A DNA stretch of 64,000 nt, from NCBI GenBank assembly GCA_044892525.1, contig CM097887.1:79462397-79526396 (forward strand), given 5' to 3'. Source of the DNA: Schmidtea polychroa (Eukaryota). How positions within the stretch are numbered: position 1 is the first letter of the stretch; every line of letters begins with the position of its first letter. This document shows, piece by piece, positions 12,466-12,700 of the stretch. The notes under the pieces are model-generated. The model saw only the letters and a program-made list of their open reading frames with translations. It searched no databases and was not told where the DNA came from. A program made the position numbers and the translations under genes.

Positions 12466-12700
12466 TGGTGGGTTACTGGTGGTTGAATGTTTAAGTGCTG
12501 TTACCAGCGTAACCCAGAATACAACATTGTTTTCCTATTGGTACCCGTTGAGCAATCAACGTTGGTACTGTACCAAGGGGTTGAGTACTCGCAAAAAGTG
12601 AGCGCGTCAAGCACTGTAATTGTCGAGCACTCTATGGGTTCACGGACGCCGATAGAAGGCACGTGTCCGATTTATTTCGGTCCCTCATCGAGATTGTTTT
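12466..12700. other. Structured module S1 of E2
   Basis: Stems GGGTTAC/GTAACCC, CGTTGA-GCAA-TCAACG, TTGGTAC-T-GTACCAA, CTCGC-AAAAA-GTGAG and GGAC..GCC-GATAGAA-GGC..GTCC. Compensatory relative to E1. Confidence 0.65.

Follow-up and report, generated by a model that had tools for sequence, protein, structure and literature searches.

A candidate tRNA-Pro primer-loading structure in the U5 end of Burro-type giant Gypsy LTRs of Schmidtea polychroa

We analyzed a 64,000-nt stretch of AT-rich eukaryotic DNA from Schmidtea polychroa (the window) and found three solo LTRs, all on its minus strand. The first, E1 (12466..18023, 5,558 bp), has TG...CA ends that match both LTRs of a full element, and is bordered by a 4-bp target-site duplication, ATTG (12462..12465 and 18024-18027). 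When the window was compared with itself, positions 10823-12466 and 18023-23641 aligned in reverse to 31580-24252, indicating that 12466-18023 is an insertion in one arm of an inverted repeat. The second solo LTR, E2 (3292..8754), and the third, E3 (54219..58559), also have 4-bp duplications, as do four full elements.

The large inverted repeat (10823-31580), whose arms are 99-100% alike and which has E1 inside one of them, carries frames of 1,233 and 1,295 aa; their only Pfam match was a weak one to endonuclease VII. Positions 1-615 are the U3 (far) end of another related LTR in the opposite orientation, cut by the start of the window. A 619-aa frame on the plus strand (36432-38291) matches a Spin-doc zinc finger and a hAT dimerisation domain and is probably a hAT/Buster transposase.

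The folded region S1 (12466..12684, minus strand) is the 3' (U5) end of the E1 LTR and, in 5' LTRs, is followed by an 8-nt spacer and a tRNA-Pro primer site. A genome search with S1 gave 2,562 candidates; the 40 that were scored were all 99-100% identical, and many were paired approximately 30.5 kb apart. Eleven of 30 near-identical S1 copies shared a flank (19 had other flanks) that consists, on the window minus strand, of the 8-nt spacer and then 18 nt that are the complement of the 3' end of the tRNA-Pro(TGG) genes in this genome. The exact 18-nt site occurs 1,058 times in the genome (control, 0). It is missing beside the S1 of E1 because that LTR is solo. At 89 of 90 loci selected by the primer site, the distance from S1 to the site was 7-8 nt, and the spacer always ended in U. 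In most LTR elements, this spacer is 1-3 nt. The initial annotation, which was made from the window alone, lacked both of these facts: that E is the solo LTR of a giant Gypsy element and that S1 adjoins a primer site.

The element to which S1 belongs is very large. In one full element, the LTR starts were 30.6 kb apart and the LTR was 5.2 kb. This element was read in separate pieces, and its long frames were all on the strand of the primer site. Pfam matches on the separate frames followed the order Gag(CCHC)-MATH-env-like fusion protein-protease-RT-RNase H-integrase-ankyrin, with gag, env-like and pol all on the window minus strand. Because the polyprotein frames and the primer site are on that strand, S1 lies at the end of the LTR nearest the primer site (U5), and the window minus strand is the sense strand of the element. 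An AATAAA approximately 100 nt upstream of S1 (12780..12785, minus strand) is a candidate poly(A) signal by its sequence; if it is one, S1 would lie in U5. The general features of LTR retroelements are all present: TG...CA ends, a short target duplication, and a tRNA primer site after the 5' LTR.

Judged by size and domain order, E1 belongs to the Burro-type giant Gypsy elements. Burro/GYPSM1 are described as giant gypsy-like planarian LTR elements with an internal region of approximately 25 kb, a total length of more than 30 kb, and LTRs of approximately 5 kb, and as encoding a CCHC Gag, MATH, an env-like fusion protein between gag and pol, protease-RT-RNase H-integrase, ankyrin, BIR, and BCL2 (PMC6431247). 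Of the described motifs, BIR and BCL2 were not among the Pfam matches at E 0.01 in seven frames of one full element.

The fold is common to four U5 families. The family sample was the 90 loci found among the first 100 primer sites listed, all on contig C1. These loci formed 34 clusters at 95% identity, three of them interrupted and without the fold, and fell into family A (which includes E1 and E2), family B (which includes E3), and families C and D. A common core of approximately 150 nt is present in all four, and the region measures 190-260 nt to the LTR end. When 11 family-A sequences alone were used to build a covariance model, it recovered all nine of the B-D loci supplied to it (21-46 bits, E 6e-5 to 7e-13) as well as part of E3; in eight other loci it found nothing. 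E1 and the S1 copy of E2 (3292-3525) are 80% alike across 234 nt, at the S1 end of the LTR only; beyond S1 and the far LTR end, the two LTRs cannot be aligned except for one 200-nt patch. The three-domain core of E3 is near 54330-54485. A scan with a pattern for the B/C/D core gave no matches in viral contigs and one in metagenome contigs, an unrelated repeat without the fold.

On the sense strand, S1 consists of four domains and two short boxes. At the 5' side is a GGGACC box (12679..12684), present as GGACC in families A, C and D and absent in B, which may pair with CCC in the box downstream or with the primer's variable or D loop. Domain I (12643..12669) is a two-part hairpin capped by UUCUA (loop, 12651-12657), in which two pairs have two-sided changes in three of 11 sequences each. 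The loop is UUCUA plus two bases in families A-C and plus one freely varying base in D, and a C-G pair closes it in all four families. Next is a (U)GAACCC box (12636..12642) that is complementary to the T-arm of tRNA-Pro and is a candidate primer activation signal; its sequence is GAACCC in families A, C and D and GAAGUC in B. Domain II (12583..12632) is a long helix with a 4x6 internal loop containing a conserved CAC, and has a conserved U-G pair. Domain III (12538..12576) is a helix with an 8x1 internal loop (12562-12569) that ends in CCAA, and is capped by a tetraloop hairpin. Domain IV (12469..12516), a terminal stem with a GNRA-capped side hairpin, is family-specific. The family-A domain III cap hairpin (12546-12561) is the reverse complement of that of family B, GNRA loop included, and is possibly a local inversion of the family-B hairpin.

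The pairing in S1 appears to be under selection. In the 11 family-A sequences, 97.8% of cells formed standard pairs. Two-sided changes were found in 10 of 55 pairs, compared with 4.4 +/- 1.4 in shuffled controls; none of 500 shuffles reached 10, although this test is inflated by the shared descent of the copies. Controls in which the pairing was slid gave 0-3 two-sided changes. Two-sided changes also recurred inside each family, with 10 types common to several copies and 13 in single copies, and the consensus folds were far below those of column shuffles in all four families (40 shuffles each). The compensatory substitutions of the initial annotation were thus borne out, including the inner stem around the G(A/T)TAGAA loop (plus strand), which is GCC/GGC in E1 and ATC/GAT in E2. 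In E3, GGCC/GGTC is present (54462-54476), but the position taken for a G-T pair is a variable bulge, which in family B is A, C or T when read on the strand of the element. Three domains with compensatory pairs are common to the four families. The stems of domain IV (12469-12516) had no two-sided changes and so have no covariation support. Based on these patterns of substitution, we conclude that S1 is a selected structure at the terminus of the element.

The fold appears to be maintained on the sense strand of the element. RNAalifold gave -56.2 (covariation, -2.45) for the sense strand of family A and -45.7 (-0.65) for the antisense strand. When all four families were compared, the sense strand was the stronger in each: -60.0 versus -50.3 in A, -60.5 versus -42.3 in B, -43.2 versus -34.8 in C, and -65.7 versus -51.7 in D. 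We also counted wobble pairs in 124 pair columns of 181 parsed cores (of 186). Among the wobble types that were dominant or present in at least two copies, 17 were G-U on the sense strand and two on the antisense strand (P 7e-4); counting the U-G shared by all families a single time gives 14:2 (P approximately 0.004). Variants in single copies were 17:11, sense to antisense (P 0.34), and are probably mostly decay after insertion. The initial helices were hand-drawn on the sense strand, a possible bias in the wobble count, and the checks on this bias were RNAalifold on both strands and a set of 24 later loci. The cells of these loci, which are not independent, included 435 Watson-Crick pairs, 40 sense wobbles, 14 antisense wobbles, and 19 others. 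Finally, GNRA loops were found on the sense strand in domain IV of family A (8/9), the domain III hairpin of family B (10/14), and domain II of family C (8/8), and on the plus strand in the domain III tetraloop of family A (8/9 representatives).

These results reverse the strand assignment made initially. The annotation had described a bias of G-T pairs toward the plus strand and a module antisense to the ORFs of the element, whereas shared wobbles, RNAalifold in all four families, and the later loci favor the minus strand. The tetraloops that it read, GCAA in E1 and GCGA in E2, are present, but the plus-strand GNRA does not extend outside family A. Its more general proposal of a functional structure stands as far as a selected terminal structure is concerned, with priming or packaging still candidate roles. 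Base pairs are kept on the sense strand of the element in four families that have diverged, which indicates that S1 likely acts in leader RNA, and the strand correction matters for anyone probing S1.

The CCAA in the domain III internal loop is nearly invariant. We took its invariance only from counts in which the search pattern did not demand CCAA. It was present in all 84 parsed copies selected by the primer site (six of the 90 could not be parsed), while loop positions 2-4 varied. Among B/C/D-type copies genome-wide, CCAA was intact in 2,591, the first C was changed in 43, and the second C was changed in 33; copies with an altered CCAA were scattered over subfamilies and did not form a family.

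S1 is retained in elements that lack pol. Two elements of the E2 family (family A), 16.4 kb in length, have gag and the polyprotein tail and are without protease, RT, RNase H, and integrase. This family keeps S1 and has the same primer site at four of 30 loci, as expected of a cis signal. In these 16.4-kb elements (loci L205-L208; G000:C2:70.80-70.82 Mb and C3:61.67-61.69 Mb), gag is fused to the polyprotein tail, and the 5' LTR of one is short of approximately 3 kb found in its 3' LTR. Two 14-kb elements of family C had no pol match either.

The place of S1, its strand, its pairing pattern, the primer site, and its retention in elements without pol are established here, and the role in reverse transcription proposed below is inferred. 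We consider it very likely that S1 is a cis signal on the sense strand. We lean toward the more specific reading that it helps, in cis on the genomic RNA, to bring in the tRNA-Pro primer, to activate it, and to start reverse transcription; S1 would then work like the primer-binding-site (PBS) segments of retroviruses. Full-length RNA would carry S1 just 5' of the primer site. The 3' 18 nt of the tRNA would anneal there, freeing the 5' strand of the T-arm without disturbing the anticodon arm. The freed T-arm strand would then be bound by the GAACCC(G) box, like the primer activation signal of HIV and avian viruses, while CCAA, itself unpaired, would bind U33-U34-G35-G36 in the undisturbed anticodon loop, like the A-rich loop of HIV. 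The UUCUA hairpin would fold as a T-loop, either organising the domains or docking GG from the D loop of the primer. The same surface of S1 may serve in packaging as well.

The pairing with the tRNA is the weak link of the primer-loading model. In all 27 A/C/D cores, six to eight of eight positions of the box pair with the T-arm, and a GGACCC variant keeps a G-U pair; of the 14 family-B cores, 13 pair at six of eight positions and have a G-G mismatch inside the box. The complementarity to the tRNA was modest: P was 0.23 (5-mers) and 0.34 (6-mers) when the site was left free, and approximately 0.04 when the search was restricted to the T-arm. Co-folding of one natural 5' end with the tRNA gave the primer-site duplex alone, with no box or anticodon pairs, using a program that cannot form loop-loop pairs. 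CCAA has other potential partners: UUGG at the junction of the spacer and primer site, and GUUGG at the opposite end of the LTR. The T-arm box is approximately 180-250 nt from the LTR end; the primer activation signal of HIV is nearer its primer site than that. A search for families with another primer yielded 13 variant junctions, eight of them point variants of the tRNA-Pro site and five of them flanks without a primer site, so there is no natural swap test for CCAA or the box. The genome also has a tandem tRNA-Pro(TGG) array with a 475-bp period (G000:C1:130.90-130.95 Mb; L125-L130); the tRNA pattern had 2,161 matches genome-wide.

The polypurine tract expected before the 3' LTR was not found in 14 family-A junctions or in one B, two C, and one D element. 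In its place is a conserved 40-nt cassette consisting of a 7-bp hairpin with a 3-nt loop, GGGYCCC, and then GAGTG and a short spacer (L031:5395-5440, L205:5788-5833, L240:7866-7926, L246:7319-7379, L251:6186-6246, and L256:7935-7995; L218-L238). The GGGYCCC word is almost complementary to itself and can form 7-9 bp with the primer-site core. In families A-D, plus-strand priming or 5'-3' circularisation may be non-canonical. A more elaborate version of the primer-loading model, which we consider improbable, combines this cassette with S1. S1 would be a T-box-like scaffold for docking tRNA that evolved independently, with CCA-A contacting the anticodon, GAACCC the T-arm, and a T-loop mimic, replacing the melted T-loop, the D loop; the RNA itself would select and remodel tRNA-Pro, and elements without a polypurine tract would close the circle through the cassette at the other end that is complementary to the primer site.

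The principal alternative is that S1 is a sense-strand element that binds protein, either Gag for packaging or the basic proteins of the LTR as a response element, and functions in export, read-through of the 5' poly(A) site, or encapsidation without extra contacts to the tRNA. We regard this as a lesser possibility, tentative at most. The conserved asymmetric loops (4x6 and 8x1) are suitable for protein binding, basic ORFs are just upstream, S1 is kept in elements without pol, and the 5' fold of Ty1 binds Gag (PMC4974528). S1 is also 3' of the candidate poly(A) signal and would therefore be present only in RNA that reads through that signal. However, the position of that signal is not fixed in families C and D, and protein binding leaves unexplained the box complementary to the T-arm and the UUC at the loop. 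We think it quite unlikely that the working structure is on the opposite strand, in minus-strand strong-stop DNA (the first cDNA) or antisense RNA. DNA synthesis from the primer makes that strand first, the loop of domain III in family A is a GNRA there, and two single-copy variants of the terminal stem are wobbles on it, but the shared wobbles, the weaker consensus folds, and the sense GNRA loops of families A, B and C argue against it, and Watson-Crick stems would arise in the cDNA anyway, as a by-product.

Two other explanations are harder still to reconcile with the data. Near-invariant unpaired words across diverged families would suit a new self-cleaving ribozyme, and other retroelements carry ribozymes. 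Nevertheless, no Rfam match was found at E up to 10 or 5, and cleavage between R and the primer site would presumably break first-strand transfer. We scanned 41 cores for ribozyme core words: the hammerhead word was in two, those of hairpin, twister, pistol, group II, and the HDV loop were in none, and an HDV-like descriptor matched seven sense cores, none with UUCUA as the loop. A ribozyme is therefore highly doubtful, and the small self-cleaving classes already known (hammerhead, HDV-like, twister, pistol, hairpin) were rejected, in agreement with the earlier remark that S1 could not be matched to known cores. Least likely of all is that S1 works as DNA, as an internal Pol III-type promoter or a site for integrase or another factor, with the stems incidental. 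There is a B-box-like word on the plus strand, and some small LTR elements have tRNA-derived promoters (PMC10886601), but a site in double-stranded DNA would not be expected to show two-sided pair changes or wobbles biased to one strand, and Rfam gave no tRNA match; covariation largely refutes this reading. The Rfam search suggested initially had three chance matches in 12200-14500 (E up to 10), none in S1 and none to a tRNA family, and one chance match in eight diverse loci. No conserved 6-mer of S1 is identical to tRNA-Pro. A tRNA-derived LTR of the Helenus type was also rejected, there being no tRNA family match in 12200-14500 at E up to 10.

Two explanations based on protein coding were set aside. 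A 267-aa ORF on the plus strand across S1 was rejected as the cause of conservation because family-A copies of S1 have indels of 1-2 nt and another copy has a frame of 165 aa. With approximately 3.5 kb between the primer site and the gag frame, an IRES for gag is also unlikely.

The LTR upstream of S1 contains ORFs on the sense strand. One (12840-13370, minus strand) encodes a coiled-coil and basic protein, with only weak coiled-coil matches in Pfam (12840-13328), and another (13597-13992, minus strand) has a basic tail. Homologous frames are present in the LTR of a full element. With an acceptor-like site near 13275, the ORFs in 12840-13992 are possibly a spliced accessory gene. The AATAAA was at an E1-like position in two of nine family-A representatives and at -153 to -170 in all five of family B; in families C and D it had no fixed position.

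Retroviruses and yeast Ty elements are well known to have structured leaders next to the primer site. Like the retroviral PBS segment, S1 is a folded U5 region with an 18-nt primer site just 3' of it, and it has candidate counterparts of the short box that is complementary to the T-arm and of the unpaired word that is complementary to the anticodon loop. It differs in having no sequence or Rfam likeness, in adding three domains (190-260 nt), and in having a 7-8 nt spacer and candidate words that are farther away. T-loops usually have a purine at position 4, and S1 has U there. Otherwise UUCUA fits the T-loop pattern, as the annotation had proposed for the minus strand: a five-base loop that starts with U, ends with A, and is closed by a Watson-Crick pair (PMC4810234), with the extra bases after it, a likeness in sequence pattern only.

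Pairings of a primer activation signal (PAS) with the T-arm and of an A-rich loop with the anticodon have been described in HIV-1, HIV-2, and avian viruses (PMC11181671, PMC3185550), HIV-2 having both extra contacts and the avian pairing being between U5 and the T-loop. According to PMC3185550, no such additional contacts have been described for MLV, which is primed by tRNA-Pro, and the PAS model of HIV is disputed. Ty1 has extra boxes complementary to the T and D arms of its primer and a 5' pseudoknot, and Ty3 has a bipartite primer site (PMC4974528). S1 is like Ty1 in belonging to an LTR retrotransposon with a folded 5' end and apparent extra complementarity to the arms of the primer; unlike the Ty1 boxes, which are 3' of a short primer site and inside GAG, those of S1 are 5' of a full 18-nt site and in U5. 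Stem I of T-boxes also has a codon-plus-A word, here CCA-A, in an internal loop (PMC4810234). S1 differs in having a single T-loop-like hairpin, where T-boxes have two interdigitated T-loops on the stem that bears the specifier loop, in having its two motifs on separate domains, and in having no Rfam T-box match. A T-box riboswitch was accordingly rejected, the one T-loop-like hairpin being on another domain than CCAA.

The element family and this kind of structure are known, and for the fold itself we found no description. No published account of the LTR RNA structure of these elements was found among literature listings and the openings of abstracts. The consulted parts of PMC6431247 are silent on the LTR RNA structure, primer site, and plus-strand primer of Burro, and the fold is not described in those of PMC6431247, PMC8532177, PMC11410931, or PMC10886601. 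It is unusual for a compact fold with fixed loops to be present in thousands of copies across families whose flanking LTR no longer aligns, and these copies are a rich natural covariation set for an RNA motif. The present analysis adds a strand test with a decay control, an estimate of how modest the tRNA complementarity is, genome-wide counts of CCAA, and the missing polypurine tract. If the tRNA contacts hold, S1 would be an RNA-only device for primer selection in an element of the Gypsy lineage and would put the generality of the disputed primer-activation model to a direct test.

S1 looks to have been exchanged as a module among LTR subfamilies. When positions 12466-12765 of the window were compared with the LTR of a full element (L031:198-497), the first 300 nt were 99% identical and the next 1.2 kb only 56-91%, and we base this reading on that difference. 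LTRs have also inserted in or beside other S1 copies (L017:1736-1838, L050:1191-1441, and L087:1184-1434), the one in L017 being inside domain III.
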